Part shown: piece after piece, positions 5,551-63,336 of the stretch | Layout of the letters: each line of letters starts with the position of its first letter | Position numbering within the stretch: position 1 is the stretch's first letter | Source of the DNA: a virus | Lineage: Duplodnaviria > Caudoviricetes | DNA: 64,000 nt | Reading direction: 5' to 3' (one strand) | IMG/VR virus record: IMGVR_UViG_3300031760_000032 | Location: 15,788-79,787 of that record | The notes under the pieces: model-generated | Databases searched by the model: none | Told to the model about the DNA's origin: nothing | The model's input: the letters and a program-made list of their open reading frames with translations, nothing else | Translations under genes and position numbers: made by a program

Positions 5551-5562
5551 TATATGTATGTT
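5551..5562 (-). promoter_or_regulatory. Class B (AR9 late-type) promoter of the LRR/fibre operon
   Basis: AACA-tacata-TA upstream of the RBS of 4962-5522. Confidence 0.55.
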
Positions 5563-5620
5563 TTGTTAGAATAGATAGGTGGAACTTTATAATAAAATGC
5601 TCAAAAGGAGGTATTCTCAT

Positions 5621-7459
5621 ATGCTTATTGACCAAGCTAAATTTATATATGACTTTACTACACCAGATGTAGAAGTAACAACAGAAGGTGCTTTATTAAA
5701 TGAAGCAGCAGCTACTTCAGAACATTTTAAAACTGAAGTACTTGATGTAGATAAGTTTATCAAGAATAATATACTTAAAGAAGTATCTAATCCTGTATTC
5801 TTTAATGGTCCAACTCCAACAGAAGATGGATTGTTAAGTAATGAAATCTTTGGTATCACTAAAGCTGAACGTGCTGGTATATATGCCTATATTAATCTAG
5901 GTGGTCAGTTTATTCAGCCATTAATCTATAAGACATTACTTAAACTCAATGGTAAAATCGCAGATGTAGTAAATGGTACAGATTATTTTATCATTAATGA
6001 TAAAGGAGAACTTGTACAGAGCGATGATGGTGATACTGGTATTGACTGGTTAAAGAAAAACTTCTCTAAGATTAAGTTTAAGAAGAATGAATCTGCATCT
6101 AGAAATAAGAGAATTGATTTTATTGAGAAAGTAAAAAATAAGATGTGGGTAGATAAGTGGGTTGTTATTCCTGCTTATTATAGAGACGTAGATACTAGAG
6201 ATGCTGGTATCGGTGTAGGTGAAATCAATAAACTCTATAGTAGCTTGATAATGGCTACAAAAGCACTTAAAGAAACATCTGGTTATGGTCTTACATTAAG
6301 TGATGTCACTAAAGCAAGAGTACAGAATATCTTAGTACAGATTTTTGACTGGTTTGGTAATGGTACTACTATTAATGGACAAGAAACTCCTGCTAACTTA
6401 CCTGGTAAGATGGGTCTTATTAAACGTGGTACATTGTATAAGACTATTGACTATTCTGCTCGTCTAGTTATGTCTGCTCCTGATGTAAGTGGAGAAGATA
6501 TAGATGACTTGATGATTGACATGGACCACTGTGCATTACCGCTTGCTGCAGCGCTTTGTTGTTTTAAGCCATTTATCATGTTCTGGTTAAGACGTTTCTT
6601 TGAGAATAGATTTGCTGGTAAATTAGAGTATCCTATTATGATTAATGATAAAGAGTCTGTCATGGTTCCTCTAGTAGACTATCAAATTGCATTTTCTGAT
6701 ATAGAGATTGATAAACAGATTGAACGTTTTATTCATGGCTATAGTAATCGTTTTATTCCTATTGAAATTCCAGTAGATAAAGAAGAGTTTGCTAGACGTG
6801 CTAAGAATCATCAAATAGTAGGAGCTATTTCTGGTAAAGAAATTAAAGATTTGAAAAATTTAAATTTTTGGATGGGATTTACTGGATATAAACTTAATAA
6901 TTCAGAAGAATATAAAGAGACTAAACAAGATTATTCAGAAACTCTTAAAGTAAATAGACGTATTACATGGTGTGATTTATTCTATATGGCAGCATGTGAT
7001 GTTACATCAGATAAGATGTGTCTTATTACTCGTTTCCCTATTGACTCTTATCTTAACCAATATCCTACAAAGGTTAGAATTAAATCTACAGTTAAAACTG
7101 CACCTATGGTTATTCAGTCTGACTTTGAAGATAATATGAAATTATATAAGTGGTATCCTGTTATTGAAGATACGGACATTAACTCTAATACATCTCCAGT
7201 ATTTGAAGATACTCTTTCTATTAGTAATGGTCTTATTGAAGCTATGGGTATGGACTATGATGGTGATACAGCAATTGTTAAACCAGTGTACACAATTGAG
7301 GCTAATCAGGAATGTGAAAAACAAGCTAACGCAAAGATTCAGGTTCTTGGTATGAATGGCTTCACTACAAGAGGTGTATCAAAAGAAAACATTCTTTGTC
7401 TATATGAACTTACTATTCATCCAGATAAAAGTGTTAAGTTTGTTAATCCAGAGTTCTAA
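5621..7459 (+). CDS. rpoC: Phage multisubunit RNA polymerase beta' subunit, N-terminal half with the catalytic site
   Basis: Motifs DGLLSNEIFG, VVIPAYYRD, LPGKMGLIK..KTIDYSARLV, FKPFI, ITRFP and catalytic GMDYDGD; ends soon after; start at 5621 after AAGGAGGT. Confidence 0.92.
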   Translation: MLIDQAKFIYDFTTPDVEVTTEGALLNEAAATSEHFKTEVLDVDKFIKNNILKEVSNPVFFNGPTPTEDGLLSNEIFGITKAERAGIYAYINLGGQFIQPLIYKTLLKLNGKIADVVNGTDYFIINDKGELVQSDDGDTGIDWLKKNFSKIKFKKNESASRNKRIDFIEKVKNKMWVDKWVVIPAYYRDVDTRDAGIGVGEINKLYSSLIMATKALKETSGYGLTLSDVTKARVQNILVQIFDWFGNGTTINGQETPANLPGKMGLIKRGTLYKTIDYSARLVMSAPDVSGEDIDDLMIDMDHCALPLAAALCCFKPFIMFWLRRFFENRFAGKLEYPIMINDKESVMVPLVDYQIAFSDIEIDKQIERFIHGYSNRFIPIEIPVDKEEFARRAKNHQIVGAISGKEIKDLKNLNFWMGFTGYKLNNSEEYKETKQDYSETLKVNRRITWCDLFYMAACDVTSDKMCLITRFPIDSYLNQYPTKVRIKSTVKTAPMVIQSDFEDNMKLYKWYPVIEDTDINSNTSPVFEDTLSISNGLIEAMGMDYDGDTAIVKPVYTIEANQECEKQANAKIQVLGMNGFTTRGVSKENILCLYELTIHPDKSVKFVNPEF

Positions 7460-7464
7460 AATTG

Positions 7465-7479
7465 TATATCATAATAGTG
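7465..7479 (+). promoter_or_regulatory. Class A promoter
   Basis: TATATCAT-aata-GTG followed by the gatgagagt/actctcatc hairpin. Confidence 0.6.
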
Positions 7480-7551
7480 ATGAGAGTAAATATATTATAC
7501 TTTCATGTATAGCCTCACTCTCATCCATACTATCCGAAAGGAGGTGTTAGT

Positions 7552-7584
7552 ATGGGTGACGGATTTGGAGGCTTCGTTGACTGA
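7552..7584 (+). other. Micro-ORF MGDGFGGFVD with a very strong RBS
   Basis: AAAGGAGGTG lies 5 nt before the ATG; stop at 7582-7584. Confidence 0.4.
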
Positions 7585-7689
7585 AAATATTAATATTAAT
7601 TCAGTCAAGCAAACGAGATTTTCAAAATTCTATTCTTTAGAAAGGAGCAAGAATTATGAGTAAACTATAACAACTCAAGTTTGAAACAA

Positions 7690-8675: not shown

Positions 8676-9161
8676 TTAAGCATTAAAGATAGAATCATAT
8701 TCAGAAGTTACATTAGTTCCATCATCTGTAGTAAAGTGTACATCATTTTCATCTGCATCACCATCTACATTAGGAACTGAGATATATAACTGAAAATCTT
8801 CAGGAGTAATCTCATCAAAGTTTACATCTTCGCAATAGTCAGGGTCCATATTATTAAGATGCTCATCATCTGCTTTTAGACCAAGCTGTTTCTTAAGAAC
8901 TTCACCATATGAATCATCAGCAATATCTTCTACAGTATCAATTCTTTCAAGTACCTTATCTATAATATAATTAAAAGGTAACTCACCTTCATCTCTATCA
9001 GCTTCAAAGATATTATTCTCATCATCCATAACTCTAAGACATAAATCATCAATGAAGTTATCTACACATGTAAAGATAGAATCAGATAATTCGTCATCTG
9101 CTACTACCATATCACATACAAAATCAGTCATAAGACTATCAAGTGTAACAGGCTGAGACAT
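8676..9161 (-). CDS. Acidic hypothetical protein
   Basis: AAAGGAGG RBS; class B motif at 9184-9195. Confidence 0.75.
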   Translation of the reverse strand: MSQPVTLDSLMTDFVCDMVVADDELSDSIFTCVDNFIDDLCLRVMDDENNIFEADRDEGELPFNYIIDKVLERIDTVEDIADDSYGEVLKKQLGLKADDEHLNNMDPDYCEDVNFDEITPEDFQLYISVPNVDGDADENDVHFTTDDGTNVTSEYDSIFNA

Positions 9162-9183: not shown

Positions 9184-9195
9184 TATTGGTATGTT
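9184..9195 (-). promoter_or_regulatory. Class B promoter
   Basis: AACA-taccaa-TA. Confidence 0.5.
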
Positions 9196-10387
9196 AAGAC
9201 ATGAGCTTTTTAATGCTATACTCAAGTACAAATATTAACATAGGTATTGTGTAGAATAAATCAACTGTAGGTTTAAAATCAATAGCTTCTAATAATGGTA
9301 TAATAGAAGAATCAAGTTTAACATCGTTGAAATAGTCTATGATAATATTATAGTATGCTTTTGGGTCATTCGGTAATAGCTTTTCTTTAAATTTAACGCT
9401 ACTAATCAATTGTGCATCTACTGGATTAAACAATGATAGACCAAAATCTTTATGTTTAATAATGTAGTAATCATCTGCTACAGTAGAGAATAACGAATAC
9501 TGGTCTTGTATAAGCTCAGCATTACAATTTTGATTAGTAAACTTCTCTACAGTTTTAGTCTCTAAAGCTCTAAATAGACTCTGATTATAATCAATAGAGA
9601 AAGTTCTTGGAACTGGTACTTCATGATTAACATAGATATACTCAGTAGAGCCAGATAAGATATCATTTCTAGATAAGAATTCAATCATGTAAGGGTCATA
9701 GAGATTACCATAAGGACCAGTATAAGTAAATGTCTGTACAGAGTCATTATAGAATAGAGAGATATAATAATCCTTCATTTGTATAAGCAGACTATCTAAT
9801 GTATCAATACAATCATAGATAGTTTCTTTTACTATAGCATTATAACTTGTACCGACATTATTGATAATCATTCTATAAGTTTCAGTAACCTGGTTATCAA
9901 TATAAGATTCACCTGTTTGGTCAATTTGTGCATCAAACTTATAGACGTTATTGTTATTATCTATAGTGTCATACGATACTGAATTGACTCTATAGATAAA
10001 TTCTTTACCAGCCTGTTTAAGAGTAAAATGGTCGCCTTGATAAGGAATCCATGTATTAGGAAGCACAATACCACTAATAGATGGAGGTGCAGTAGATAAA
10101 CCATCTTCATCATACTCTAAGTCAATTTCAATTCGAATACCTTGAGCATAAAAGACTGCATCTTTAATGAGTTTATAACGAATTGGACTATTCTTACCAA
10201 TTGCTACATATTCTGCTCCAGTACCTTCATCTAGTGTAGTAGCATCTTTATCAATATTACGCCAATCACAAATAACAGGAGACATATTATTGAATACATA
10301 GTTAGCAGTTTTTACTTTCTGTATCGTACCAGAAGTAAGAGCGTCAATAGCCCTAGCATATGACTTATTAATAAACTTGCCACTCAT
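9194..10387 (-). CDS. Probable virion structural protein
   Basis: 397 aa ORF with RBS and class B promoter; function inferred from context only. Confidence 0.55.
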   Translation of the reverse strand: MSGKFINKSYARAIDALTSGTIQKVKTANYVFNNMSPVICDWRNIDKDATTLDEGTGAEYVAIGKNSPIRYKLIKDAVFYAQGIRIEIDLEYDEDGLSTAPPSISGIVLPNTWIPYQGDHFTLKQAGKEFIYRVNSVSYDTIDNNNNVYKFDAQIDQTGESYIDNQVTETYRMIINNVGTSYNAIVKETIYDCIDTLDSLLIQMKDYYISLFYNDSVQTFTYTGPYGNLYDPYMIEFLSRNDILSGSTEYIYVNHEVPVPRTFSIDYNQSLFRALETKTVEKFTNQNCNAELIQDQYSLFSTVADDYYIIKHKDFGLSLFNPVDAQLISSVKFKEKLLPNDPKAYYNIIIDYFNDVKLDSSIIPLLEAIDFKPTVDLFYTIPMLIFVLEYSIKKLMS

Positions 10388-10470: not shown

Positions 10471-11494
10471 TATAACAGAAGTCGTCCATTCTCCATTCTG
10501 GTACACCGAAGTCTTTCTCATTTCTGTACTTGTTTCTATGCAAGAAGAACTGATATCCGAATACAGAGTAGTTCATAACTATATTAGTTATCATCTTGTC
10601 ATCTACATCTGCATCTGGGAAGAAGTGTACTTCTAAACTAAATGGCATTGCAGTATGAATAAACCAATATAAAGCTTTCTCATACGCTTTACCACGTCCA
10701 GCAATATATACACAATTATCTTCAGACTTTATTAGATTGTATTTTATACCCAATACATCAAACGGTCCTTCTGCAATATATAACTTTATATGTCTACCTA
10801 AGTCTACATTACATGGAAGTATATAGAAGTCATTATCAGGTGTATTCTTAAACACTTTATAATTAATATACTTCTGCTGTAATGATTCTTCTAGTTTACT
10901 TTCTGCATAACTACCAGATATGATATTTCTCATATTCAAACTAGCATTACTTCTAGAAAGAAATCCTATAAAGTAGTAGTTAAGTTGTTGTACAGTATTA
11001 GGATGTCTTGTAAGATAGTTAATACCATTGCGAGATAATAAGTCTGATATATTGAGTATAATCTTATTTCTTATACAATCTTCATATGTGAATCTTAAGC
11101 CAAGTCTATCATTTACATACTTAAGTTTATATTCAGATAACTCATTCACGGTTACATTATCCCATAATAGATTATAGAATGAATTGTTTCCAGAGAATCC
11201 CATTTTAAAGTCTGAGCCTTTATTAGAATTCAATATCTCTGGGTCAAGTTGTTTTGATATTCCAATATCATCTAAAAAGTCTTGATTCAGATAACCATGA
11301 GATTTACATATGAAACAGTTATAAGTTATTGGTTTATTAGGGTCATTAAATGGTCCTATATATAGCTTTGGTCTTTGTTCACCACAAAATGGACAAGGAC
11401 AAGCTATTTCATTACCACCTGAAACAATTGATGGTCTATCAAGTACTTGTAGAAGATATTGTTTTATCGCTTCCTTCTGTATCATTATCATCAA
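10463..11494 (-). CDS. DNA primase (zinc finger plus Toprim)
   Basis: CPCPFCG...YNCFICK zinc-binding domain; YIAEGPFD and FFPDAD Toprim motifs. Confidence 0.85.
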   Translation of the reverse strand: MMIMIQKEAIKQYLLQVLDRPSIVSGGNEIACPCPFCGEQRPKLYIGPFNDPNKPITYNCFICKSHGYLNQDFLDDIGISKQLDPEILNSNKGSDFKMGFSGNNSFYNLLWDNVTVNELSEYKLKYVNDRLGLRFTYEDCIRNKIILNISDLLSRNGINYLTRHPNTVQQLNYYFIGFLSRSNASLNMRNIISGSYAESKLEESLQQKYINYKVFKNTPDNDFYILPCNVDLGRHIKLYIAEGPFDVLGIKYNLIKSEDNCVYIAGRGKAYEKALYWFIHTAMPFSLEVHFFPDADVDDKMITNIVMNYSVFGYQFFLHRNKYRNEKDFGVPEWRMDDFCYKI

Positions 11495-11726
11495 CTACTT
11501 TCTTATCTATATTAATCTCATACCCTAATGCTTCAGCATAACGTATAAGACTTCTAAGAGTATAAGAGTTTTCTCCACTCTCTATATTACTTATTGTAGC
11601 TGTTGATAGTCCACTCATTTCTGATAATTGTTTCTGAGTAAGACCATGAGACTTACGAATATTCGTAAGTCTCATTCTAATGAATTGGTCTTGAATATAC
11701 ACATCTATATTATTCACATATACCAA
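11439..11726 (-). CDS. XRE-family helix-turn-helix regulator
   Basis: LTNIRKSHGLTQKQLSEMSGLSTATISNIESG. Confidence 0.9.
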   Translation of the reverse strand: MVYVNNIDVYIQDQFIRMRLTNIRKSHGLTQKQLSEMSGLSTATISNIESGENSYTLRSLIRYAEALGYEINIDKKVVDDNDTEGSDKTISSTST

Positions 11727-12366
11727 TCCTCACTTTCAATTCAAGCTCTATAAGTTTATCTACATCTACGTTAGCACATTCGTTGGCATCTGATTCTGGA
11801 GAAAGACTATAATATTTTTTACAAGTCTCTCTATAGAATACATCATCATCGTCATTTTCATGTTCATTATAAAATGTCCAATACTCTTGATTAAACATTT
11901 CATTTTCTAAATATAACCACACGTTTAAATCCTCTGTACCTCCTCTATCCTCTATTTCTTTCTCTATATGAAGAACATGTCCTATTTCATGTCTAAGACA
12001 GATTTCGATATATTCCTTTATGATAGAGGTGTCCTGGTTATGATATAGCAGTTCTATAATATGCTGTTTAGAAATGATTGTTCTGTATGATAATTTACCA
12101 TCATCTCTTTCATCGTATTTTGTAAGAGCAAATGCATCATCATATAATTTATTATCATTATAAATTTCAGCATACAGACTATCAACGCAGTCACATTTAT
12201 CTTTATATCTTATTTCATATTCCTGTTCAAGGTATTCGTTATATGTTTCAGGGATAGAAAATTTCCATCTTGATTTATCTATATTATATTCACTAGAGAG
12301 TTTATTAGCCATCTCTTTAGCGAATAAAACGATTTCATAATATCTTCTAGCAGTCTGTCTAAGCAT
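11710..12366 (-). CDS. HEXXH zinc metalloprotease-like protein
   Basis: CLRHEIGHVLH plus a distal E motif (ESDANE); start at 12366 after AAAGGAG. Confidence 0.65.
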   Translation of the reverse strand: MLRQTARRYYEIVLFAKEMANKLSSEYNIDKSRWKFSIPETYNEYLEQEYEIRYKDKCDCVDSLYAEIYNDNKLYDDAFALTKYDERDDGKLSYRTIISKQHIIELLYHNQDTSIIKEYIEICLRHEIGHVLHIEKEIEDRGGTEDLNVWLYLENEMFNQEYWTFYNEHENDDDDVFYRETCKKYYSLSPESDANECANVDVDKLIELELKVRIGICE

Positions 12367-14115: not shown

Positions 14116-15696
14116 TCATACTTGAATAATAAATCTTAAGACTTCATCGATAAGAATATCTGATTCCATCTTAATATCCATACCATCAATATCCTTGTTA
14201 TAATAATCTATAACTTGGAATTTGCTACTAAGCATTGTTGCTACCAATGCTAGTATCTGTCTAATCTTCTTTTCGTCACCATTATACTTTTTCATGATTT
14301 CGTTATAGTATTCAGACTGTTCAAGTTTGATAAGCTCTTTCTTACAGAGAGTTGTTCTTTGAGAAATCTGAATAACATTACTTGCAAAAATATAAGGTAA
14401 CAGACGCATACCACTATTAAGCATATGACGTTTACCTGCGATTATAAGCGTAATATATTGGTCTGCATTAATAGAATTGATGCTTACTGTATCACCAAAA
14501 TACTTGTAAAACATGTTATTCACAAGATTCTGTTGGAATCTATTGATAACAGGTCTTCCATGTTTGGTGAGTTCTCTCTTATAATAATCAATCTCTGCTT
14601 GTTCAAATGGTCCAAACTTTGCAACGATTGATTCCATAATCTTCTCACATCTGAAGTCATTCTGAATAAGAAGAGATTCATCTGTCTTAATAAGATGAGC
14701 CTCGAACTTATCAATCTGAGAAGTATTATCTTCTCCATCTCTTTTACTACTACTGAGAGATGAATAGTCGTATTCATAACTGATATCAGAAATATTATAC
14801 TTGATATTATTACGAACACTTGATATGTTATAACTCACTATATTACCATTATAGGTATACTTAGGCATTACTTGCATAATAGTAGTATTGATAGCATCAT
14901 TCGAATTAATGGTAGGTGAGTATCCTCTAATCTCACTAATAGTCCAAAGAATCTTATTTGTCTTATAGTGAGATTGCATTGTTGTGCTTGCAGTTTCATA
15001 AAGCTTTGCATACATATCTGCAGGCTTTAATCCTCTAGCAGCCATTTTATCGAAGTCTACATATACTTCGAATAACCAATTGTATACAGTAAAGATAATC
15101 TCATGAATCTTCTCTGTAGAAGTGATTCGATTTCTGTATACAAAATGCATAATCAGTGGGATAAGCATATTCATAAAGAGACTCATCTCCATAAAATACT
15201 TACCGTGATTATTATTATACTGAAGTCCCTCATTACTTTTATTCTTGTAATTCAGGTCAAGCTGGTAATTTGTACTTACCATATTCCATGCTTTATTATA
15301 CATAGAATCTGACAGGATATATGTTTTAATATCGCTTAAGAAATCTTGAAGAGTATAAGCTCTAATAAGATTCCCATTATTATCAATAAATCCTGTGTCC
15401 ATAAGCTGCTTCATTCTAAACATATAGAACAGCAGCTCATGTTCTGAATCGAAATACTTTTCAAAGTAATTCATATACTGACAGATGTGAGCTCTAACTT
15501 CATCAGAGTTATAACATCTTTTCGGGGTCAGCATAAAGCTGTCCAGTACTTTGCTTTCTTCAATACCGAAGAAGCGAGATACTGGTAAGATAATTGCATT
15601 CTTACATTCTCTAAAAATTCTTTCCTCCTCTCTCGGATACCATTCATCTACTCTAGGTAGAAATGATGGTGACATTAATATTTCGTAAAGTTCCAT
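14116..15696 (-). CDS. Candidate sigma-like promoter-specificity subunit of the non-virion RNAP (AR9 gp226 / phiKZ gp68 type)
   Basis: 526 aa, helical; size, early-type promoter and recalled resemblance to this jumbo-phage family; not verified by search. Confidence 0.45.
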   Translation of the reverse strand: MELYEILMSPSFLPRVDEWYPREEERIFRECKNAIILPVSRFFGIEESKVLDSFMLTPKRCYNSDEVRAHICQYMNYFEKYFDSEHELLFYMFRMKQLMDTGFIDNNGNLIRAYTLQDFLSDIKTYILSDSMYNKAWNMVSTNYQLDLNYKNKSNEGLQYNNNHGKYFMEMSLFMNMLIPLIMHFVYRNRITSTEKIHEIIFTVYNWLFEVYVDFDKMAARGLKPADMYAKLYETASTTMQSHYKTNKILWTISEIRGYSPTINSNDAINTTIMQVMPKYTYNGNIVSYNISSVRNNIKYNISDISYEYDYSSLSSSKRDGEDNTSQIDKFEAHLIKTDESLLIQNDFRCEKIMESIVAKFGPFEQAEIDYYKRELTKHGRPVINRFQQNLVNNMFYKYFGDTVSINSINADQYITLIIAGKRHMLNSGMRLLPYIFASNVIQISQRTTLCKKELIKLEQSEYYNEIMKKYNGDEKKIRQILALVATMLSSKFQVIDYYNKDIDGMDIKMESDILIDEVLRFIIQV

Positions 15697-15731
15697 ATAA
15701 ATACCTCCTATTCATATAGAGATTGTATTTA

Positions 15732-15746
15732 CGCAATAATAGTATA
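15732..15746 (-). promoter_or_regulatory. Class A promoter
   Basis: TATACTAT-tatt-GCG on the - strand. Confidence 0.55.
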
Positions 15747-15751
15747 CAATC

Positions 15752-16528
15752 TTATCTCTTTTTAACCTTTTTAATGGTTGAAGTAGTCTTGGTTTTACCT
15801 ACAATCTTAGTAATCTTAGGTTTAAGTGTATCTAATGGATTCTCACCAATAAGATTCTTAGATTTGATTACTTTACTTTTGGGTTCCTCTTTGATTCCTT
15901 TTTCTTTTTGCTCTTTTGTAATTTTATTACGTTCCTGGAGCTTTTTATCAAAACTTGGAATAGTACCAGCAAGTTTGACAATACCACCGCTAGAGGCAAT
16001 TCTATTGAGTGTATCTTTCTCAAACAGATTCTCTCTATTCATAACGATATAAGCAAAGTAAAGTGATTTATTATAACCCATAGCATTATCGGGATTTCGC
16101 ATTGTAGGTTTTTGTACAAGACATCTGAATGGGAGATGTTTTTCAAGGTCAGAAATTAAAACTCCATGAGTCTTAAATGTGTATGCATATGTATATACGA
16201 AATTAGTATCATTAGAAAAGAATCTAACGTTATATTTCTTAATGCTTCTATTAGCAGACGAATCACCCTCGTTCTGAGTAAATTCTACCACTACATCATT
16301 GAAAAAACCTTTAGTAGAAGATGGAATGAGAAAGTGAATATAATATAACTGTTTACCACCAGTCTTAGTCTGTCTATAAACAGTATACTTCACTTTATCA
16401 TTTCTACTTTCAAGTGACATAAGTTCTTTTTCATAAGGCTCACTATTAGAAGCCATAGAATTAACTGCACTACCTCTGCCAGAAGGATTAGCAATATAGT
16501 CGTCAAACGTATATTTTAATTTAGCCAT
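15752..16528 (-). CDS. Hypothetical protein with Lys-rich tail
   Basis: Start at 16528 (MAKLKYTFDD) after AAAGGA. Confidence 0.75.
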   Translation of the reverse strand: MAKLKYTFDDYIANPSGRGSAVNSMASNSEPYEKELMSLESRNDKVKYTVYRQTKTGGKQLYYIHFLIPSSTKGFFNDVVVEFTQNEGDSSANRSIKKYNVRFFSNDTNFVYTYAYTFKTHGVLISDLEKHLPFRCLVQKPTMRNPDNAMGYNKSLYFAYIVMNRENLFEKDTLNRIASSGGIVKLAGTIPSFDKKLQERNKITKEQKEKGIKEEPKSKVIKSKNLIGENPLDTLKPKITKIVGKTKTTSTIKKVKKR

Positions 16529-17622: not shown

Positions 17623-17634
17623 AACAATTTAGTA
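17623..17634 (+). promoter_or_regulatory. Class B promoter
   Basis: AACA-atttag-TA. Confidence 0.65.
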
Positions 17635-17658: not shown

Positions 17659-18090
17659 ATGGCTACTGATGGTAAATATACAGATTACTTTGTGGATAAA
17701 ACTGAACCACTGTTATCTGTAGATAAATACTATAAACCTCTTGTTGCTAAGGATGAAAATTATGCGACATTATTACTAGTAAGATTGATTCTGTTAGAAC
17801 CTGGAACTATTCAAACACACCCAGATTGCGGTGTAGGTTTAGTTTCTAAATTCAGATATGCTACCGACGTAGATATGATTGAATTACAGAAAAGAATTAA
17901 AGACCAAATCATGTTATATTTACCTCAATACTCACTTGTCAATGTAAAGTGTGAATTGGGTGATAATAAAACTGGTGATGAGAAAGTCATCAAAATTTAT
18001 ATTACATCTGAGCAACTCAATGTCTTTTTACCAATCAATGTAGAGACAGGTGAGGTCTTAGAAACTACAAAATTAAGTGATTTTAGATAA
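17659..18090 (+). CDS. Baseplate wedge protein (T4 gp25-like)
   Basis: LVRLILLEPGTIQTHPDCGVGL motif; about 140 aa. Confidence 0.7.
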   Translation: MATDGKYTDYFVDKTEPLLSVDKYYKPLVAKDENYATLLLVRLILLEPGTIQTHPDCGVGLVSKFRYATDVDMIELQKRIKDQIMLYLPQYSLVNVKCELGDNKTGDEKVIKIYITSEQLNVFLPINVETGEVLETTKLSDFR

Positions 18091-18114
18091 GTATTGCATA
18101 AGGAGGAAATTATT

Positions 18115-20404: not shown

Positions 20405-20451
20405 ATAGTACATAACACTATCGTAAAATATTTTGAAAGGAGCATGTTATC

Positions 20452-21122: not shown

Positions 21123-21134
21123 AACATTTAAGTA
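21123..21134 (+). promoter_or_regulatory. Class B promoter
   Basis: AACA-tttaag-TA. Confidence 0.6.
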
Positions 21135-23100: not shown

Positions 23101-23112
23101 AACATTGAAGTA
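23101..23112 (+). promoter_or_regulatory. Class B promoter
   Basis: AACA-ttgaag-TA. Confidence 0.55.
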
Positions 23113-23141
23113 AACCAAATAAGAAAGGAGTCGTGTTTATC

Positions 23142-45220: not shown

Positions 45221-45442
45221 ATTTATGACTCCTTTGGATAAATTTACTCCTATTTCAGGAGCATAGATAGTTGTTCTGGTTTTAAAGGCTATTCCAGAAA
45301 CCTAGGACGCAACTCCTCTTAGATAGTCTCTCGGTACTTTTAGTGTAGTATGGCTGTCGCTAAGCCTCTACCGAGAGTCCGTGAGTAAAAGATAATGAGT
45401 GGTTCGATGTGACGGCATCGAGATTTATTATCTCTTACTCAC
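45221..45442 (-). ncRNA. Candidate structured 5' leader or ncRNA
   Basis: Five consecutive hairpins between a class A promoter and the RBS. Confidence 0.5.
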
Positions 45443-45501: not shown

Positions 45502-45513
45502 AACATTGAAATA
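45502..45513 (+). promoter_or_regulatory. Class B promoter
   Basis: AACA-ttgaaa-TA. Confidence 0.6.
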
Positions 45514-47563: not shown

Positions 47564-47601
47564 AACTTCCTTATAATATATTATAAATGGAGGTGTTCTA
47601 A

Positions 47602-48045
47602 TTGAGTAGAACATATAGACGTCGTAATAAGAAGAAGAGGAGTTATAGTTATTGTAATTCTAAAAAGAGTACTGCACCTGTTAGTTATAAGGTGTCACAA
47701 GACCTTACTAAAGATAAGTCTCCTGAAGTTAAAAGAGATGCTTCTGGTAATATTATCTATTCTTCTAAATACATAGGTGATGAAAAGTTTGAATATTGGG
47801 TAGAATATAACTCAGATAAACAGCCTATTCATTATCATGACACTAGAGGTGGAGAATGGTGGATTAAGTATAATTCCAAAGGAAATATCTCTAACTTCTG
47901 GGATAATACTGGATATGAAGAAGTGTATAACTACTATAAGAATGATATAGTAATTAGTACAGATTCTTATGGTATTAAAACTAAAAAAGTTATAGACAGA
48001 GAGCGTTGTAACATTACACGTGATGTATTCTTAAATACACCATAA
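47602..48045 (+). CDS. YD-like beta-repeat protein with basic N-terminus
   Basis: RDASGNII, EYNSDKQPI and KYNSKGNI repeats. Confidence 0.55.
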   Translation: MSRTYRRRNKKKRSYSYCNSKKSTAPVSYKVSQDLTKDKSPEVKRDASGNIIYSSKYIGDEKFEYWVEYNSDKQPIHYHDTRGGEWWIKYNSKGNISNFWDNTGYEEVYNYYKNDIVISTDSYGIKTKKVIDRERCNITRDVFLNTP

Positions 48046-49410: not shown

Positions 49411-49451
49411 AGTGTTTAACTTTATTATAATATGTAAAGGAGGTAGTTGGT

Positions 49452-50757: not shown

Positions 50758-51444
50758 TTAAAACATAAGTCCGAATTGACGTTGACATAGCTTAGCATTA
50801 TAGTATGTGTATACAACTCCCATAAATGCTCTATAACAGTTCTCAATGAATTCGTATTCATCTGGATTACTGAATGTCAATGGAAACTCTCTGAAGTTTG
50901 GTTCTTCTTTATCAAACTGAAGAATTAAACAACCTTCAAGATTGATATTCTTTTTTATATAGATTAGATATCTATATGCGGCTAACTGCATAAAGTATTT
51001 ATAACCTACATGATTAGATGTCTTAAAGTCTACCATATACGGTTTGTCGTCAATGCTAATGAGTAAATCATATGTTCCTGCAAAGAACTCACCTACCATA
51101 GGTTCTTCTTGACCTAGGATTCTTATTCTATGACAATTATTAATACCTTCCCACCATTTCTTAAATGCTTCTAAGCATACGTTAGGATGTTCTACTTTCT
51201 TTCCCTTTAGATACTTCTCAATAGATTCATGCACCATAGTACCAAACTCAGCAGCTTTCATAGCAACTTCTCTATTATCTAATCCTTGTCTACCAATTCT
51301 ATTAGCCCACCCAATAAGACCTTCTGTATCAATAAAAGATAATAGTTCTGTTACACTTGGAACACCTCTACCATTGTATGTATATCTTGCTTTTCTCTTA
51401 TTAAAGACTGTTAAATCGTTAAGCAATAATTCTGGGTCTAACAT
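50758..51444 (-). CDS. PD-(D/E)XK (RecB/Cas4-like) exonuclease
   Basis: PSVTELL, GTMVHESIE, AGTYDL, VDFKTS and QLAAY motifs. Confidence 0.85.
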   Translation of the reverse strand: MLDPELLLNDLTVFNKRKARYTYNGRGVPSVTELLSFIDTEGLIGWANRIGRQGLDNREVAMKAAEFGTMVHESIEKYLKGKKVEHPNVCLEAFKKWWEGINNCHRIRILGQEEPMVGEFFAGTYDLLISIDDKPYMVDFKTSNHVGYKYFMQLAAYRYLIYIKKNINLEGCLILQFDKEEPNFREFPLTFSNPDEYEFIENCYRAFMGVVYTYYNAKLCQRQFGLMF

Positions 51445-51494
51445 AGTAAGAATCTACTCCCTTCATTACAATAATTTAATAGTAAGTTGAATCA

Positions 51495-55538: not shown

Positions 55539-55613
55539 TCCTAATCGTGTAAGTTGAGGTGAGTTTTACACTTACCTCAACTTATCAATAATAATATAAA
55601 AGGAGGAATTTCC

Positions 55614-56180
55614 ATGATTGGAAATATTTCAATTGCCACAAATTTCAATGAATTAAATTTCATCATTCAAACAAGACTGAATACAAAAGTGCGTTCATAT
55701 ATGAGTAATGGTATAGAAGCACCTAAGTGTAAAGTTATTGTTATAGATGATTATTGTCCTAAAGATGACGATAATTATATGTGTGCTTCTCTCTTGCTTC
55801 CCGATGGTAAGTCTATGGAATGTCTAATCAATGATGACTATGCTCAGTTTGAATATTTTTATAATATGAAACTAATGAATGACCAAGATGTTAAAGAGTA
55901 TCTTGTTGTTATTATTGCTGGATTGATGGAGAGAGGTTATGACTTCATCTTTTATTTTGATTTCCAGAATAATACAATCATGCAACCTATTGCACAGTAT
56001 TTAATAAACTTCTTGAATATGAATCTTGGACTGTTGTTTTATGACGCAGCTTGCATTCAACAAAATCCTCAGGCATTGTTTTATCAATCTATGAGACCAG
56101 AAGCTATGTATGCTAACAAAAAGGCTATCGATGCTTATGGTTATTCAAATAAAAAACCATCTTTGTTTCAGCAATTTTAA
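55614..56180 (+). CDS. Hypothetical protein, paralog of the next gene
   Basis: RBS; shared pattern with 56192-56680. Confidence 0.7.
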   Translation: MIGNISIATNFNELNFIIQTRLNTKVRSYMSNGIEAPKCKVIVIDDYCPKDDDNYMCASLLLPDGKSMECLINDDYAQFEYFYNMKLMNDQDVKEYLVVIIAGLMERGYDFIFYFDFQNNTIMQPIAQYLINFLNMNLGLLFYDAACIQQNPQALFYQSMRPEAMYANKKAIDAYGYSNKKPSLFQQF

Positions 56181-57517: not shown

Positions 57518-57568
57518 GTCTTATTAGTGGAACTTTAATATAAAGATTCTTGTAAAGGAGGAAACAGT

Positions 57569-60500
57569 ATGTCAACAAACTTCTTAAATAGACGTATGGA
57601 TTTGCTACATAGCGCAGCAATAAATACGAACTTTCTTACTATGGATACTAGTTATCCTGTTAAGATTGCTGGTAAAATATTAAAGCTGTTTACTGCAGCT
57701 GATATCTTTAATACAAATGATTGGGTACTTCAAAATACTGAAAGTGAATCTATTCTTACAATTAGCTCTAATCATGTATATGACTTTGCAGGTAGAGTTA
57801 TTAAGAATAATATCGGTGAAGAAAAAGCATATGCTACTAATGCCGATGTATATAAACTCAATGATTATGTAATGGTAATCATTGATTTTGATGATGAACA
57901 TAGCAATGCTAACCCATCTATCCATCTTTGTTCTCAGACTAACTTTGCAAACTTTATCACTGGTGGAAGTGGTAGTGGAAATGATTGCAAATTTAAGTTA
58001 TTTGATATAACTGGCGATACTCCAATGGGTAATGGTTTTGATTATAATATAGATACAGATGTATTTGAATCTGCAATCGAATTTGATAATTTAGAAGATT
58101 CTCATGCTTTAATACGTCATTCTTCTGATAATATAGTATATGAACTGCCCGTTAAAGACAATAACAATAATTATTCCATGAAGCCAGTATCAAATTTAGA
58201 AACAATTGATATCAATAGTATCAATATGTCTATTCAAAATTTCATATACCCTTCTATAAATATTCAATCTGTTAATGTAACAGGAGGATTTGATACTCAA
58301 GATGGACTAGAACTGTATAAAGTATATAATGGTTCATTCTCTGATAAGTTTATAGAAGAGTATTGTTTCACTGAAGAAGAGATGCTTAATCTTGGATTAT
58401 GGAATGCTGATTATGTTAACTATATAAAATCATATTATAATAACATAAGCGGTGATAAGTCAGAATACTACTACGTATTAAAGAGTAGTAGTAGAGAATA
58501 TGATAGTGATGAATTAGATAGTGAGCTTAAATTTACTCCTATCAAGATTAGTAATAATAAGATAATGACTATAGATTATATAACCAATAACGCATTTACT
58601 GTAGGTGATAAAAAAGTAGAAGTTACTTATATCGGAGAGAGTTCTAAGTACTTTGGAAATTTCTGGGGTAATGATTTAACTACTGGATATTCTTATTTCT
58701 GGTATAATGGAGACTATGGTAAGCTGAGTATCTATAATCTTACATATATAAATGATAATGGTAAATCTGTAGACATAGATTCTTATGATGTTAACTATAC
58801 AGATTATATAAACAATGGCGGGAATATAGATAATGCTGACCGTATATTCCATAAAAATTATAATTTAACTGGTGCTGAAGATAGTGAAGCCTATGTAAAC
58901 CGTTTTATAGACTTCTTCTGTAATGATGATTCATCTTACAAATCATTTTTACTTGGTAGAGCTTATGGTTTATCTAATGGTACTTCTGGTGATAATGCTA
59001 TTACCTTTAAAAGTGAAGCTTCTAATTCAAAAGTTATATCTAATACAGTAATAATGTATCCAGAACTTTATGAGAATGTGTTGTTTGATAAAGATGGTGA
59101 TACATTTACTCATTCTTCTGAGAAGATTAGAAACTTCACATCTCTATATAATGGAGAATCTACAACTGATTTTGATAGAACTGATTACTATAATGAATCG
59201 AGAATTAGTGCTAGGTCTAATATAAATAACTATTATACTGTATATGAACTGTTTGACCATGCAAATACTATAGAAAATGCTGTTCCTCAAGATTTAACAA
59301 ATGGTGATACTTATAATTATGAAACCGTAATAAAGGGTACTGAATATAAGTATAAGTATAGATGTAATAAAGCGTTGAATAGTGACTATGGTAAGATACT
59401 TGTTATAACAAATAATGATAACGTTACTAAAAAGATACTTCTAAGTATTGTAAATAAGCTCATAGTTTCTAGAATAGCTGCACCTTATTATACTGATACT
59501 AAACCAAGTTATAATAATGCAGAAATCGGACATAGCTCTGTTGTTGTAAGACAAGATATCAATAGTGCTACTGATTCTATTGAAGCAGATGGCAATAATA
59601 TTGTTATAAATTTCAATGGTATATCATATCAATTATATAAGATTGTAAAAGATGGAACAAATCTTACTCATACTGCAGTAACAACAAGTAACTTTAAGAC
59701 TGATTCTAGTACAGAAACATCTAACTTAGAATACTACTACTTCATTACTGATGAGTATGTATATAGAATCAAGTATTTCTGGAAATCTAGTGACACTTCT
59801 AAGGCTGTAAATGCTTATGATTATTATACAATATCTAGATTATTTAAATATACAGAGGATATAACAGAAGCAAACTGTCATAATAATACATTTACAAAGG
59901 CATATGTAGCAGCATATGTAAATACAGAAAGTGCTACTGTAAATAGTGCTGTTAGTTCGTTCAATAGTCTAAGAAGCTCTAGTCAACTTTCTATCGTAGA
60001 ATACATTGTTAAGGCATTTAACTTCTATCCAGTATCTCCATCTAACGATGAATTCATTACAAATTTACATTTTACATCTTCTGTAGATGAATTTAATGTA
60101 TGTACAACAGATTTGATACTTGATGACTTCTATCTGGTATATCCAAGAAATGTAGGAGATATTACAAAGAATGACGGTACTGGTTTACGAAAAACTGATT
60201 TCTATGGTGATTATGTAGTTTATCAGAATGGTCAAATCCCATCGCTATCTAATGTATCTAAAAACGGTTCTCTAATCTACTCTATACAAAATTATAATAA
60301 GTTCATCCAGAAAGAACTTGTTAGTGATAGAATAAATACCGTTGAATTTAAGTACATAAACGGTATTGGTATTAGAGAAGATTACTATGTAAACAAGTCT
60401 CTATATGATTTCTATAATAGTGCTGTATCAAGAAACCTAGCAATACCTAAAGATGATACAAATAGCATCAGAAAATTCAATGAATCACCATTCAGCTTCT

Positions 60501-61462
60501 TTAAGAAATCTGATGTAGCTAATATAACTAATACAGAGAATATTAACGGTAAAATCAAATTCAAATCAGGTACATCTAATTATACACTAAAGTCTAGTCT
60601 ATATGTCTCAACAGATATAGATTCTTCAAATATCTATAACTTCAATAAATCTACAATTTATAGTAAAGAAGAAGACCCTAATAGTTCTGAAGTTAGATAT
60701 GTAGATGCTACTAAAGATTACTCATCTAATGATAATATATTTGTAAATGTATCTAAGGCTGGAGATAAAATTATATATTCTATAGCTATTAGTGATGCGA
60801 ATATAACATCTCCGTCTATAGTTCCATTATCTGGTATGATGGATGATATAGATGATGATAAAATTAAATGGGATTCTTTATTAATAGCTCTCTTCAATGA
60901 CAAATCTATAGACTTATTATCTAGCCCATTAAGACAAATCAAATCTTCGTTAAATACAGATTTAGTTGATACTGGACAAAATATTAATGATTCAGTAGAT
61001 ATCAACGATGATGTATCAACTTTAGCTAATTCTCATGATAATATCTTTGATGTCGATAGCAAATACTATAAAGAGCATAACGCAGAATTTGATAGTAAAC
61101 ATAATGTATATAAATTCAATTACGGTTATGGATTTATAAATCAGAGAAGAGACGTAAATAACAGAGGTGTGATAGTATTTGTGTCTGACGGTTCTTATAC
61201 ATCTCAAATAAGAAATGGTGCTGAAGAACCACCAGAAGATTACAGATATCAATTTACAGAAGGTAATATATATCCAAAACGTATGTATATTAATAATGAC
61301 GGTCTTCTTTGTACAAAGGAATACTTTGATAATGAGGCTGCTGAATATACTCCTGCTGGTGGTACTGGACCTGTATATCCAGACAATCCTACAACTATTG
61401 CAGCTCTTCTTAAGAAGATTGAAGAACTCGAAAATAGAATTACTACACTTGAAGGTAACTAA
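57569..61462 (+). CDS. Large virion protein, probably a tail fibre or appendage
   Basis: 1297 aa, Asn/Tyr/Ser-rich; C-terminal coil LLKKIEELENRITTLE; next to the endolysin. Confidence 0.55.
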   Translation: MSTNFLNRRMDLLHSAAINTNFLTMDTSYPVKIAGKILKLFTAADIFNTNDWVLQNTESESILTISSNHVYDFAGRVIKNNIGEEKAYATNADVYKLNDYVMVIIDFDDEHSNANPSIHLCSQTNFANFITGGSGSGNDCKFKLFDITGDTPMGNGFDYNIDTDVFESAIEFDNLEDSHALIRHSSDNIVYELPVKDNNNNYSMKPVSNLETIDINSINMSIQNFIYPSINIQSVNVTGGFDTQDGLELYKVYNGSFSDKFIEEYCFTEEEMLNLGLWNADYVNYIKSYYNNISGDKSEYYYVLKSSSREYDSDELDSELKFTPIKISNNKIMTIDYITNNAFTVGDKKVEVTYIGESSKYFGNFWGNDLTTGYSYFWYNGDYGKLSIYNLTYINDNGKSVDIDSYDVNYTDYINNGGNIDNADRIFHKNYNLTGAEDSEAYVNRFIDFFCNDDSSYKSFLLGRAYGLSNGTSGDNAITFKSEASNSKVISNTVIMYPELYENVLFDKDGDTFTHSSEKIRNFTSLYNGESTTDFDRTDYYNESRISARSNINNYYTVYELFDHANTIENAVPQDLTNGDTYNYETVIKGTEYKYKYRCNKALNSDYGKILVITNNDNVTKKILLSIVNKLIVSRIAAPYYTDTKPSYNNAEIGHSSVVVRQDINSATDSIEADGNNIVINFNGISYQLYKIVKDGTNLTHTAVTTSNFKTDSSTETSNLEYYYFITDEYVYRIKYFWKSSDTSKAVNAYDYYTISRLFKYTEDITEANCHNNTFTKAYVAAYVNTESATVNSAVSSFNSLRSSSQLSIVEYIVKAFNFYPVSPSNDEFITNLHFTSSVDEFNVCTTDLILDDFYLVYPRNVGDITKNDGTGLRKTDFYGDYVVYQNGQIPSLSNVSKNGSLIYSIQNYNKFIQKELVSDRINTVEFKYINGIGIREDYYVNKSLYDFYNSAVSRNLAIPKDDTNSIRKFNESPFSFFKKSDVANITNTENINGKIKFKSGTSNYTLKSSLYVSTDIDSSNIYNFNKSTIYSKEEDPNSSEVRYVDATKDYSSNDNIFVNVSKAGDKIIYSIAISDANITSPSIVPLSGMMDDIDDDKIKWDSLLIALFNDKSIDLLSSPLRQIKSSLNTDLVDTGQNINDSVDINDDVSTLANSHDNIFDVDSKYYKEHNAEFDSKHNVYKFNYGYGFINQRRDVNNRGVIVFVSDGSYTSQIRNGAEEPPEDYRYQFTEGNIYPKRMYINNDGLLCTKEYFDNEAAEYTPAGGTGPVYPDNPTTIAALLKKIEELENRITTLEGN

Positions 61463-61505
61463 TAATTTATCATTGTTAGAGAGACCCGTTAATTTGGGTC
61501 TCTCT

Positions 61506-61517
61506 AACATTATATTA
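61506..61517 (+). promoter_or_regulatory. Class B promoter overlapping the terminator hairpin at 61475-61508
   Basis: AACA-ttatat-TA. Confidence 0.55.
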
Positions 61518-61540
61518 AAATACTAAAAGGAGGTATTTAT

Positions 61541-63244
61541 ATGCTTAAAGGTGTAGATATTTCTAAATGGAATGGTAGTATTGACTTTTCCAAACTCAAG
61601 GGACAAGTAGATTTTGTCATTATGAGAGCTGGATATGGTAGACTTACTTCTCAAAAAGATGAACGCTTTGAAGAATATTATGCTGCTTGTGAAAAGTATG
61701 GTATTCCAAAGGGTTGTTATTGGGTGTCTTATGCTACATCTGGTCCTGAAGCTGTTCTAGAAGCTAATGCTTTTCTTTCTTGTGTAAAGGGTAAGAAGTT
61801 TGAATATCCTGTTATGTTTGACTATGAAGCATTTCCAGGATATGAAAAACAAAAAGAACCTTCTGTTGCTAGAGAAGTAATAACTAGTTTTATGAATACA
61901 GTAAAAAGTGCTGGTTATTATATAGGTCTGTATTCTTACTATCTTATGTTTAAGAATTGTATTCCTATTGATATGCAGGATGGTAGATATGATATCTGGC
62001 TTGCACATTATACTTCTTCTACTCCTTATACTGGACATAAAGTATGGCAGTATTCTTCCAAAGGAAGACTTAATGGAATACCTTGTGATTTCGATATGAA
62101 CTACTGTTATATAGATAATTATCCAGAGATTATTCAGAAGGGTGGTTATAATGGTTATACTAAGAATGGTGAAGTTGTAACACCTACACCAGTAGTAAAA
62201 CCTACAAATGTAACTTATCCTATTGATTCTTCTACAACTACATATGAACAGAAACATTATGCTTATAACGATAAGACTCAGTTATCTAAGCACTTTAATG
62301 TACAAGAGTTCAAGTGTAAGTGTGGTAAACAGCATGATATTGTAATCAATACTAGACTTGTTGCTGGACTTGAAAAGCTGTTTGAGAAGTTTGACTGCTC
62401 TATGATTATTGTAAATAGCGGATATCGTTGTCCTGAATATGATATTCATATGAATGGCTTTGCTGGTAAACATTCTGTCGGCGATGCTGCGGACGTAGTA
62501 TTATATGATAAGAATAAAGCTGTTATTTCTACCAAGAAGATTTCTTGTGCTGCTCAAGATATGGGAGATATATTTGGTGGTATTGCAAATATAAACAAGA
62601 CTTATACAGCAATTCATCTTGATGTAAGGCAAGGTTGTATATGGCTTGGTAATGAAGTTATTTCTAATAACACCGTTACTAGTAACTTCTATTCTTACTA
62701 TGGTCTTTCTAAAGAAGATGTATATGGTAAGACTGCTCCTGTTGTTACACCAAAGCCAGTTGTAGAAACTCCTAAGGTAGAACCTAAGATTAATACACTT
62801 GCTGCTGGAACTAAGATTAATCTTAGCAATACAAATCTCTATGCTTCTTCTACTGCATCTAATGCAGTTAGAAAACTATCTGGTGACTATTATGTATATG
62901 ATGGTCAAGTAGTAAATGGAAAAATTCGTATTACTAACTCTGCTGATAGAGTAGGTAAAGGTATGAGTAATGTAACTGGTTGGATAAATGCTTCGTCTGT
63001 AACAGCTAATAAGAAGGAAGATACTGTTATTACTGCTGGTAAAGAAGTAAAACTTAACAGCACACCTCTTTATGCTTCTGCAAGTTCTTCCAGATATTCT
63101 TCTAGAAAGACTGGTACTTACTATGTGTACAGTGATGAAGTGATTAAAGGAAGAATTCGTATTACTAACAAAAAAGAAAATGTAGGAAGGACACCAGCAG
63201 GTAATTATGTAACTGGCTTTGTTAATGTATCTGATATTAAGTAA
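61541..63244 (+). CDS. Endolysin: GH25 muramidase, peptidase M15 and two SH3-like cell-wall-binding repeats
   Basis: KGVDISKWNG..FVIMRAGYG; LSKHF..EFKCKCG..SGYRC..H..GDAADV..IHLDVR; two AG..(I/V)xL...LYAS..Y(Y)VY..G.IRITN repeats. Confidence 0.9.
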   Translation: MLKGVDISKWNGSIDFSKLKGQVDFVIMRAGYGRLTSQKDERFEEYYAACEKYGIPKGCYWVSYATSGPEAVLEANAFLSCVKGKKFEYPVMFDYEAFPGYEKQKEPSVAREVITSFMNTVKSAGYYIGLYSYYLMFKNCIPIDMQDGRYDIWLAHYTSSTPYTGHKVWQYSSKGRLNGIPCDFDMNYCYIDNYPEIIQKGGYNGYTKNGEVVTPTPVVKPTNVTYPIDSSTTTYEQKHYAYNDKTQLSKHFNVQEFKCKCGKQHDIVINTRLVAGLEKLFEKFDCSMIIVNSGYRCPEYDIHMNGFAGKHSVGDAADVVLYDKNKAVISTKKISCAAQDMGDIFGGIANINKTYTAIHLDVRQGCIWLGNEVISNNTVTSNFYSYYGLSKEDVYGKTAPVVTPKPVVETPKVEPKINTLAAGTKINLSNTNLYASSTASNAVRKLSGDYYVYDGQVVNGKIRITNSADRVGKGMSNVTGWINASSVTANKKEDTVITAGKEVKLNSTPLYASASSSRYSSRKTGTYYVYSDEVIKGRIRITNKKENVGRTPAGNYVTGFVNVSDIK

Positions 63245-63250
63245 TATAAA

Positions 63251-63284
63251 AGAACAGGGACACAAAAGTCCCTGTTCTTATTCT
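63251..63284 (+). terminator. Intrinsic terminator
   Basis: aagaacagggac/gtccctgttctt stem. Confidence 0.85.
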
Positions 63285-63336
63285 TTGACTCGGAGAACTA
63301 TTTAGTAATGACTTAATAATGTTAGGAGGTAATTAT

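Follow-up and report, generated by a model that had tools for sequence, protein, structure and literature searches.

The question raised by this stretch of DNA is whether a motif of the form AAC(A/T)-N6-TA (the class B motif), which recurs upstream of its genes, is a late promoter of the kind mapped in the Bacillus phage AR9, and whether the genome that carries it, like that of AR9, contains uracil in place of thymine. The window analyzed (64,000 nucleotides) comprises bases 15788-79787 of the 79,787-bp IMG/VR record IMGVR_UViG_3300031760_000032, the whole of which is referred to below as the 80-kb contig. In AR9, the late promoters have the consensus 5'-AACA-N6-T(A/G)+1 and are read on the template strand by a non-virion RNA polymerase (nvRNAP) holoenzyme composed of gp105, gp089, gp270 and gp154 together with gp226 (PMC5312081; PMC5449584; PMC9209446), transcription starting at the last base of the motif (PMC5312081). 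The reading favored here, with a probability of about 0.7, is that the sites in the window are AR9-type late promoters, read by the phage nvRNAP, on a genome that is most probably composed of thymine DNA. The first part, that AAC(A/T)-N6-TAA sites are AR9-type late promoters read by this polymerase, is well supported.

The window is a fragment of the genome, about 220 kb in size, of an uncultured AR9-related jumbo phage; the record is 36% complete according to CheckV, which implies a genome of that length. A scan of IMG/VR with the gp226-like protein encoded in the window identified five complete relatives (G001-G005), which have direct terminal repeats and are rated 100% complete. The contig aligns collinearly with positions 97,969-179,605 of G001 (223,528 bp), most aligned blocks being 80-96% identical, and G001 was used as a complete proxy genome for the contig; the gp226 of the closest complete relative is 98% identical. 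Distant single-protein queries (P0208, P0123 and P0164) gave almost no matches in IMG/VR. Genes were identified by searches against PHROG and Pfam and by tblastn. Among cultured phages, the β' piece encoded in the window is matched best (27-33% identity) by Listeria phage LPJP1, Staphylococcus phages S6/PALS_2, Bacillus phages BpSp/AR9/PBS1, Yersinia phage phiR1-37, and the Fusobacterium JD-Fnp phages, matches that, at the level of protein sequence, place the phage in the AR9-like branch of the jumbo phages that encode RNA polymerases.

The initial annotation had listed 13 AACA-N6-TA sites and 8 AACT-N6-TA sites in the window, and every one of them (13/13 and 8/8) is confirmed in position and strand. 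They are given below as class B promoters, together with genes that they precede; those not marked AACT have the AACA form.

5551-5562, minus strand: class B promoter before the operon of 4962-5522, identical in the loci of relatives (L007 and L008)
5583-5594, plus strand: AACT promoter, 38 nt before the ATG at 5621 of the virion RNA polymerase β' N-terminal gene (AR9 g145 homologue)
5621-7459, plus strand: gene for the virion RNA polymerase β' N-terminal subunit, a predicted late gene (phrog_2986, E 4.8e-82; tblastn matches to AR9 g145, LPJP1, S6 and phiR1-37)
9184-9195, minus strand: class B promoter before 8676-9161; AACATACC[A/T]ATAA is kept in relative loci L009-L012
10414-10425, minus strand: class B promoter after a terminator, before the virion structural gene 9194-10387 (AR9 g165-like, phrog_3013)
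17623-17634, plus strand: class B promoter after a terminator, before 17659-18090 (baseplate-wedge-like) and 18094-19842
21123-21134, plus strand: class B promoter after a terminator, before the virion structural gene 21155-21931 (phrog_18911, AR9 g112-like)
23101-23112, plus strand: class B promoter before 23133-23645
33719-33730, plus strand: class B promoter after a terminator, before 33759-34559 and 34559-36568
36598-36609, plus strand: class B promoter before 36632-37018
37028-37039, plus strand: class B promoter before 37064-37318
40355-40366, minus strand: AACT promoter before the terminase large subunit gene 37982-40324 (phrog_32359)
40410-40421, plus strand: class B promoter, divergent from the terminase promoter, before the gene 40429-41268
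42968-42979, plus strand: class B promoter before the GroEL-like gene 43009-44712
45502-45513, plus strand: class B promoter before 45536-47002 (AR9 g233-like endonuclease)
47564-47575, plus strand: AACT promoter after a strong hairpin, before 47602-48045
49418-49429, plus strand: AACT promoter after a terminator, before 49452-50717
51477-51488, minus strand: AACT promoter before the exonuclease-like gene 50758-51444
55579-55590, plus strand: AACT promoter after a hairpin, before 55614-56180
57531-57542, plus strand: AACT promoter after a terminator, before 57569-61462 (a gene of 1297 aa)
61506-61517, plus strand: class B promoter after a hairpin, before the endolysin gene 61541-63244
63296-63307, plus strand: AACT promoter after a terminator, 41 nt before the ATG at 63337

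Once the gene starts are corrected, the distance from each of the 21 sites to a start codon with a Shine-Dalgarno site is 32-44 nt. The correction concerns two genes whose starts were placed too early when the longest open reading frame (ORF) was called; their true ATGs are at 5621, 38 nt after the 5583 site, and at 63337, 41 nt after the 63296 site. If the A of TA is taken as the transcription start, the Shine-Dalgarno sites fall at +9 to +22 and the start codons at +19 to +36, with leaders of 18-35 nt. The remark in the initial annotation that many sites sit right after a terminator also holds, in that a hairpin with a folding energy of −10 kcal/mol or below is found in the 60 nt upstream of 12 of the 21, with visible T-runs. 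It should be noted that a rule combining a hairpin with a T-run gave terminators at only 6/21 sites, an undercount that arises when the T-run is absorbed into the stem, and hairpin strength was used instead. Further matches to the pattern are present upstream of genes at 8698-8709 (minus strand), 20414-20425 (plus strand) and 45264-45275 (minus strand), at −51, −38 and −55, respectively; these lack the TAAWA continuation or lie inside an early-promoter hairpin, and are probably chance matches rather than promoters.

The motif is not enriched in the window as a whole (134 occurrences versus 168±12 expected from dinucleotide shuffles), but it is enriched by position. In the 80-kb contig there are 27 sense matches in the 70 nt upstream of genes, compared with 7.7±2.8 expected for the same upstream regions under a first-order Markov model (maximum 19 in 2000 simulations) and 6 in the antisense orientation, an excess of about 7 standard deviations; AACA..TA also has the highest count among all combinations of a 4-mer, N6 and a 2-mer in these regions. 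The start-proximal zone of G001 contains 55 sense and 7 antisense copies of AAC[AT]-N6-TA. The corresponding sense and antisense counts are 7 and 6 with an N5 spacer, 10 and 7 with N7, 2 and 0 for AACG, 2 and 2 for AACC, and 3 and 2 with TG in place of TA; when AAC is replaced by AAG, ATC or TAC, they are 18 and 13, 12 and 11, and 5 and 10, so that no one-base variant of AAC is enriched in this genome.

These counts bear on the view that the motif is not a promoter at all, but either acts at the RNA level, for instance in processing or translation, or is a by-product of the AT-rich composition of intergenic DNA. The motif is indeed always found in short AT-rich leaders near ribosome-binding sites, and its window-wide count is below the chance expectation. 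However, the enrichment in G001 is specific for one strand, that in the contig is measured against a model of the very upstream regions concerned, and the signal is lost when the spacer is altered by 1 nt or a base of AAC is changed. Furthermore, the sites often follow directly after terminators, where a new transcript must start, and they have the same form as promoters that have been mapped experimentally in AR9. A role other than that of a promoter is therefore scarcely credible.

Conservation extends to bases that the search pattern leaves free. There is an A at +2 in 23/25 sites of the contig and in 50/55 sense sites of G001, which thus continue as TAA, and +4 is A in 19/25 contig sites; position −8 in G001 is A in 35 sites and T in 20. 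The description in the initial annotation of an invariant AAC and TA with a variable fourth position is accordingly upheld, the N6 spacing being strict and −8 being A or T. In relatives whose gp226 is 60-90% identical, orthologous genes are still preceded by AACA and TAA, with drift in the N6 spacer and the flanks; at the 17623 site, AACA and TAAT are kept in relatives across five different N6 spacers. Application of the same pipeline to AR9 gives 3.58 sense matches/kb upstream of genes and 0.69/kb antisense, the matches peaking 31-40 nt ahead of the ATG. Since the same procedure gives the same picture for AR9, the motif of the window behaves like the mapped AR9 late promoters. Within the genes of G001, AAC[AT]-N6-TAA is rarer than in synonymous-codon shuffles (35 sense copies versus 65±7, and 8 antisense versus 35±6), but control patterns are also off by several standard deviations and the null model is poorly calibrated, so that avoidance of spurious promoters inside genes is suggestive only.

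The genes that follow the motif are those to be expected of a late promoter of the AR9 type. When the genes of G001 and the contig are classed by their homology to those of AR9, the motif is seen ahead of the portal, tape-measure, virion, terminase, amidase and virion RNA polymerase genes, and it is found in tandem with early-type promoters before the genes for DNA polymerase, nvRNAP β'C and GyrA. Internal class B sites are present before the SbcD and DnaB homologues, matching AR9 g002 and g007, each of which is preceded by an internal late promoter in AR9 (PMC5312081). Promoters of another class, TATATTAT-N6-G, many with a hairpin downstream, are present at about 15700-15760 and also over 282-51530; they precede the gene for the gp226-like protein and other early-type genes and are conserved in relatives. 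This sequence mirrors the consensus of the early promoters of AR9, which are read by the virion RNA polymerase (AAATATATATTAT-N6-G; PMC5312081).

A promoter of the AR9 type would need a polymerase to read it, and the window encodes a candidate for the specificity subunit.

14116-15696, minus strand: gene for a gp226-like promoter-specificity (sigma-like) subunit of the nvRNAP, 526 aa, with an early-type promoter upstream

This protein matches AR9 gp226 in BLASTP at 4e-18 with 22% identity. A phmmer search of the PDB with the single sequence gave no match, a family profile being needed; the profile built from 60 gp226-like sequences has a sole match in the PDB, AR9 gp226 (7S01_A, E 1.6e-63), which covers residues 10-462, the full length. 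An AlphaFold2 model (predicted local distance difference test score 90) has AR9 gp226 as its best Foldseek match (7S01_A, E 1.1e-15), followed by phiKZ gp68 (8QUE_B), the third-best fold match (E 2.3e-6). The gene is flanked by homologues of the primase and of g227, a synteny shared with AR9, and Trp208, Ser245, Tyr246 and Tyr263 of AR9 gp226 are conserved in the clade. The protein is thus, as judged by sequence and predicted fold, a full-length homologue of AR9 gp226. All four core pieces of the nvRNAP (βN, βC, β'N and β'C) are present in G001. The gp226-like family comprises 459 clusters at 50% identity, all unannotated, and exact copies of the protein are found on many contigs of about 215 kb, labeled "hypothetical protein", including a third-party annotation record of GenBank assigned to Caudoviricetes.

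It might be argued that the class B sites are instead promoters of the host type, TAAWAT being a −10 hexamer for the sigma-A RNA polymerase of the host, or for a phage sigma factor, with AAC as an upstream extension. The resemblance of T-A-A-W-A-T to TATAAT extends to 4/6 positions, but there is no −35-like conservation in the 12 nt upstream of AAC, and an invariant AAC at a fixed spacing of 6 nt is a feature foreign to sigma-70 promoters. A start about 7 nt after such a hexamer would, moreover, put the Shine-Dalgarno site (at +9 to +11 in ten of the sites) at or before the start of the transcript. No gene with a σ70 region 2 was found in the five complete relatives (0/5), whereas the phage has a complete nvRNAP of its own together with a gp226 homologue. 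The host-type reading is consequently very improbable, and the architecture of the motif, taken with the encoded gp226 and nvRNAP, makes recognition by the same kind of holoenzyme as in AR9 the best reading.

According to this interpretation, the nvRNAP, steered by the gp226-like subunit, would recognize the −11 to −8 element on the template strand, as in AR9, and transcription would start at the A of the invariant TA. Class B sites that stand alone would drive late genes encoding virion proteins, virion RNA polymerase subunits, terminase and endolysin, and tandems of class B and early-type TATATTAT promoters may provide continuous expression of the replication and nvRNAP genes. The gp226 relative would, if the genome is of thymine DNA, read T and not deoxyuridine (dU) at −11/−10. 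In AR9, the template bases 3'-UUGU-5' at −11 to −8 are bound by gp226 and βN, with T being tolerated at −8, and the Cβ of Val206 in the pocket for −10U leaves no room for the methyl group of thymine, which is accepted by the V206G mutant (PMC9209446). The suggestion in the initial annotation that the recognition mechanism is the same as in AR9 is therefore sustained with respect to promoter architecture, the gp226 homologue and the pieces of the nvRNAP, but not with respect to a conserved thymine-excluding Val206.

The proposal in the initial annotation that the genome might be substituted with uracil is not supported by the gene content of the relatives. A flavin-dependent thymidylate synthase of the ThyX type (PF02511) is encoded in all five complete relatives (5/5) and in none (0/5) of the reference phages, of which AR9, LPJP1, S6 and phiR1-37 are known to have dU-containing DNA and the fifth is the Fusobacterium phage JD-Fnp4. 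A dCTP-deaminase-like gene (DCD, PF22769) has the same distribution (5/5 and 0/5), and ThyA (PF00303) is absent from both sets (0/5 and 0/5). The ThyX protein (387 aa) scores above the Pfam cut-off, and an alignment with T. maritima ThyX shows that the RHR..S.R motif and two downstream arginines are kept; its gene is in an operon behind a class B site. ThyX and DCD together form the ordinary route to dTMP, and a phage with dU-containing DNA has no use for a thymidylate synthase. Pairing of the DCD with ThyX fits dTMP synthesis. Since ThyX and a dCTP deaminase appear to give the clade its own dTMP, thymine is most probably present in the genome, a base composition deduced from gene content, sequence reads being alike for U and T.

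Of the two enzymes whose presence the initial annotation had regarded as evidence against substitution, thymidylate synthase is thus found in the relatives, but dUTPase is not. The genes that it had associated with dU-containing DNA are similarly divided, with a dCTP-deaminase-like gene being present, but no homologue of Ugi, dCMP deaminase or dTMP nucleotidase. In G001, neither AR9 Ugi (by tblastn) nor the g151 nucleotidase is matched at E≤1, matches of the AR9 dCMP deaminase (g221) and the g238 kinase are at chance level (E≥0.1), and neither the dCMP-deaminase family nor NT5C is represented in the complete relatives (0/5 each). More distant IMG/VR relatives (G006-G010) have no ThyX, but these genomes are only 37-76% complete and are uninformative.

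The ThyX gene of G001 lies outside the window in a co-directional string (36145-43414, locus L042) that encodes, in order, a 265-aa protein of unknown function, ThyX, a protein of 1178 aa with enoyl-CoA-hydratase-like, GNAT acetyltransferase and P-loop regions, the dCTP-deaminase-like protein, and a 262-aa protein, also of unknown function. This string could serve for more than plain dTMP synthesis, for example in a route of pyrimidine modification.

The residue corresponding to Val206 of AR9 gp226 points in the same direction as ThyX. Val206 is described as "absolutely conserved" in the gp226 of dU phages (Fraser 2022, PMC9209446), but this column, which is anchored by the invariant Trp208 in MAFFT, BLASTP and profile alignments, contains Ile in the window and Ile, Ile, Lys, Thr and Thr in G001-G005, all of which share the promoter motif. 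Among 94 members of the gp226-like family, it is Val in 17, Gly in 13, Thr in 11 and Ile in 9, with other residues in the remainder. In addition, Arg363 of AR9 βN, which stacks on −10U, aligns with Asn, and Lys375 is kept, although at 24% identity this alignment is uncertain. The variation at 206 argues against a conserved dU-specific pocket, as far as can be judged from an alignment, but is not proof of tolerance for thymine.

Several points weigh against the interpretation of these promoters as acting on thymine DNA, and some of them favor the same AR9-type promoters on a uracil-substituted genome, in which the dCTP deaminase would supply dUTP and the gp226-like pocket would require dU at −11/−10. 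The DCD, if monofunctional, would raise dUTP, as happens in PBS2, and it is found in every complete relative; neither type of dUTPase, trimeric or dimeric, nor a uracil-DNA glycosylase was detected in these five genomes (0/5 for each). The nearest cultured relatives by RNA polymerase subunits (LPJP1, S6, AR9/PBS1 and phiR1-37) are all dU phages. The residue at 206 is never Gly in the clade, and Ile, Lys and Thr keep the Cβ, so that a clash with the thymine methyl is possible and the pocket, if its backbone geometry is unchanged, would still reject thymine; the other residues noted above (Trp208, Ser245, Tyr246 and Tyr263) are conserved. It should also be recognized that ThyX carries about 230 additional N-terminal residues, which is unusual, and has an activity that is predicted from its sequence, that ThyX and DCD are encoded in a region beyond the 80-kb contig and are seen only in the complete relatives, that the absence of Ugi by BLAST is weak evidence in view of the small size and fast divergence of Ugi-like inhibitors, and that the start sites and promoter activity are deduced rather than read from transcript 5' ends. 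Against a uracil-substituted genome stand the ThyX with its intact catalytic motif behind a phage promoter in all five complete relatives, the lack of ThyX or ThyA in the reference phages, the lack of homologues of the AR9 Ugi, dCMP deaminase, dTMP nucleotidase and kinase, and the replacement of the "absolutely conserved" Val by Ile, Lys or Thr, with Asn at the low-identity position of βN Arg363. A uracil-substituted genome is thus unlikely, and thymine DNA is preferred.

Besides the virion RNA polymerase β' N-terminal subunit, the window encodes the terminase large subunit, a GroEL-like protein, an endolysin, a split NrdD and virion structural proteins, and the portal and DNA polymerase genes are in the remainder of the 80-kb contig. 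The G+C content is about 33% and the genes have strong AGGAGG ribosome-binding sites, properties that, with the anaerobic NrdD, suggest an anaerobic host. No tRNA was found in the window by ARAGORN, and no intron or other RNA family by Rfam. The nrdD gene, for the anaerobic ribonucleotide reductase, is split into 25464-26201, which contains the ATP-cone and positions 1-103 of the NRDD profile, and 28192-29457, which contains positions 164-562. About 2 kb, including an ORF of 163 aa at 27006-27497, separate the two halves, and the gap between the corresponding ORFs in G001 is only about 340 nt; no Rfam intron family was matched in the interruption. Genes of AR9 are also interrupted by introns and homing endonucleases.

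Other observations concern individual proteins. The gene at 32474-33658 encodes a protein of 394 aa with an AIPR (abortive-infection phage-resistance) domain (PF10592, E 4.5e-20), here carried by a phage. Repeat-rich proteins are encoded at 899-4947 in the late operon under the 5551 (minus strand) promoter; one of these, of 620 aa, matches phrog_35892 and phrog_18805 in 4-5 repeated stretches and shows many internal repeats in BLAST against G001. An ORF of about 431 aa in G001 (10877-12172, locus L043), with equivalents in G002-G005, has a weak, sub-threshold match to tubulin (PF00091) in each of the five genomes (22-26 bits, E 1e-5 to 1e-6). A PhuZ/TubZ-like identity is possible, but searches of the PDB and PHROG gave no match and the ORF is not confirmed as a tubulin; the opposite strand also carries a long ORF.

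The balance tips modestly toward the broader proposition that a widespread clade of uncultured AR9-related jumbo phages uses the template-strand promoter system of AR9 on thymine DNA. To our knowledge, the AR9 nvRNAP is the only known multisubunit RNA polymerase that reads a −10-like element on the template strand. In the literature this mode of reading is linked to deoxyuridine, and dU phages are stated to encode close orthologues of gp226 (Fraser 2022, PMC9209446). If the proposition is true, an enzyme hitherto known only in a uracil-dependent form has a natural counterpart in the clade that reads thymine, and the dependence on uracil would be a secondary specialization of the PBS1/AR9 group rather than an inherent part of the mechanism, which would then be more general. 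The Ile, Lys and Thr at position 206 and the Asn at βN position 363 would, if the DNA contains thymine, represent natural experiments on the discrimination between U and T. The motif also offers a ready means of annotating late promoters and operons in these uncultured phages.

Comparison with the AR9/PBS1 system shows the extent of the likeness. Both have AAC at −11 to −9, a fixed 6-nt spacer and TA at −1/+1, with late sites about 30-40 nt before the ATG; in both, late sites precede virion, lysis and virion RNA polymerase genes and tandems with early promoters precede replication and nvRNAP genes, and homologues of all five nvRNAP components are present. By its consensus, its gene classes, and its nvRNAP core with a gp226-type subunit, the system belongs to the AR9 kind. 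It differs in that −8 is A or T in this clade, whereas AACT is not enriched in AR9 (7 sense versus 7 antisense), in having A at +2 in about 90% of sites compared with 36% in AR9, and in making no use of TG starts. The gp226 of the clade is only 22% identical with that of AR9 and has Ile, Lys or Thr in place of Val206. The clade also has ThyX and DCD, has no matches to Ugi, dCMP deaminase or the nucleotidase, and has DNA that is probably of the thymine type; possession of a thymidylate synthase and the lack of conservation of Val206 set the clade apart from the uracil-DNA group.

The phage phiKZ, a nucleus-forming member of the Chimalliviridae, has thymine DNA, a ThyX, and an nvRNAP with gp68 that uses TATG late promoters starting at G. 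The present phage resembles phiKZ in having a multisubunit RNA polymerase with split β and β' and a fifth, sigma-like subunit, and in its (here probable) thymine DNA. However, the promoter consensus of phiKZ is TATG, the sequence and fold of the gp226-like protein are much closer to those of AR9 gp226, and the gene order and RNA polymerase subunits are closest to the AR9/S6/LPJP1 group. The engineered V206G holoenzyme of AR9 (Fraser 2022), which accepts thymine at −10, would be a laboratory counterpart of what the clade seems to do naturally, but the residue here is Ile, Lys or Thr and not Gly, so that thymine, if tolerated, must be accommodated by a pocket of different construction. What is new here is the combination, on an AR9-type system, of a relaxed −8 position, a fixed TAA start, a divergent gp226, and, probably, thymine DNA.

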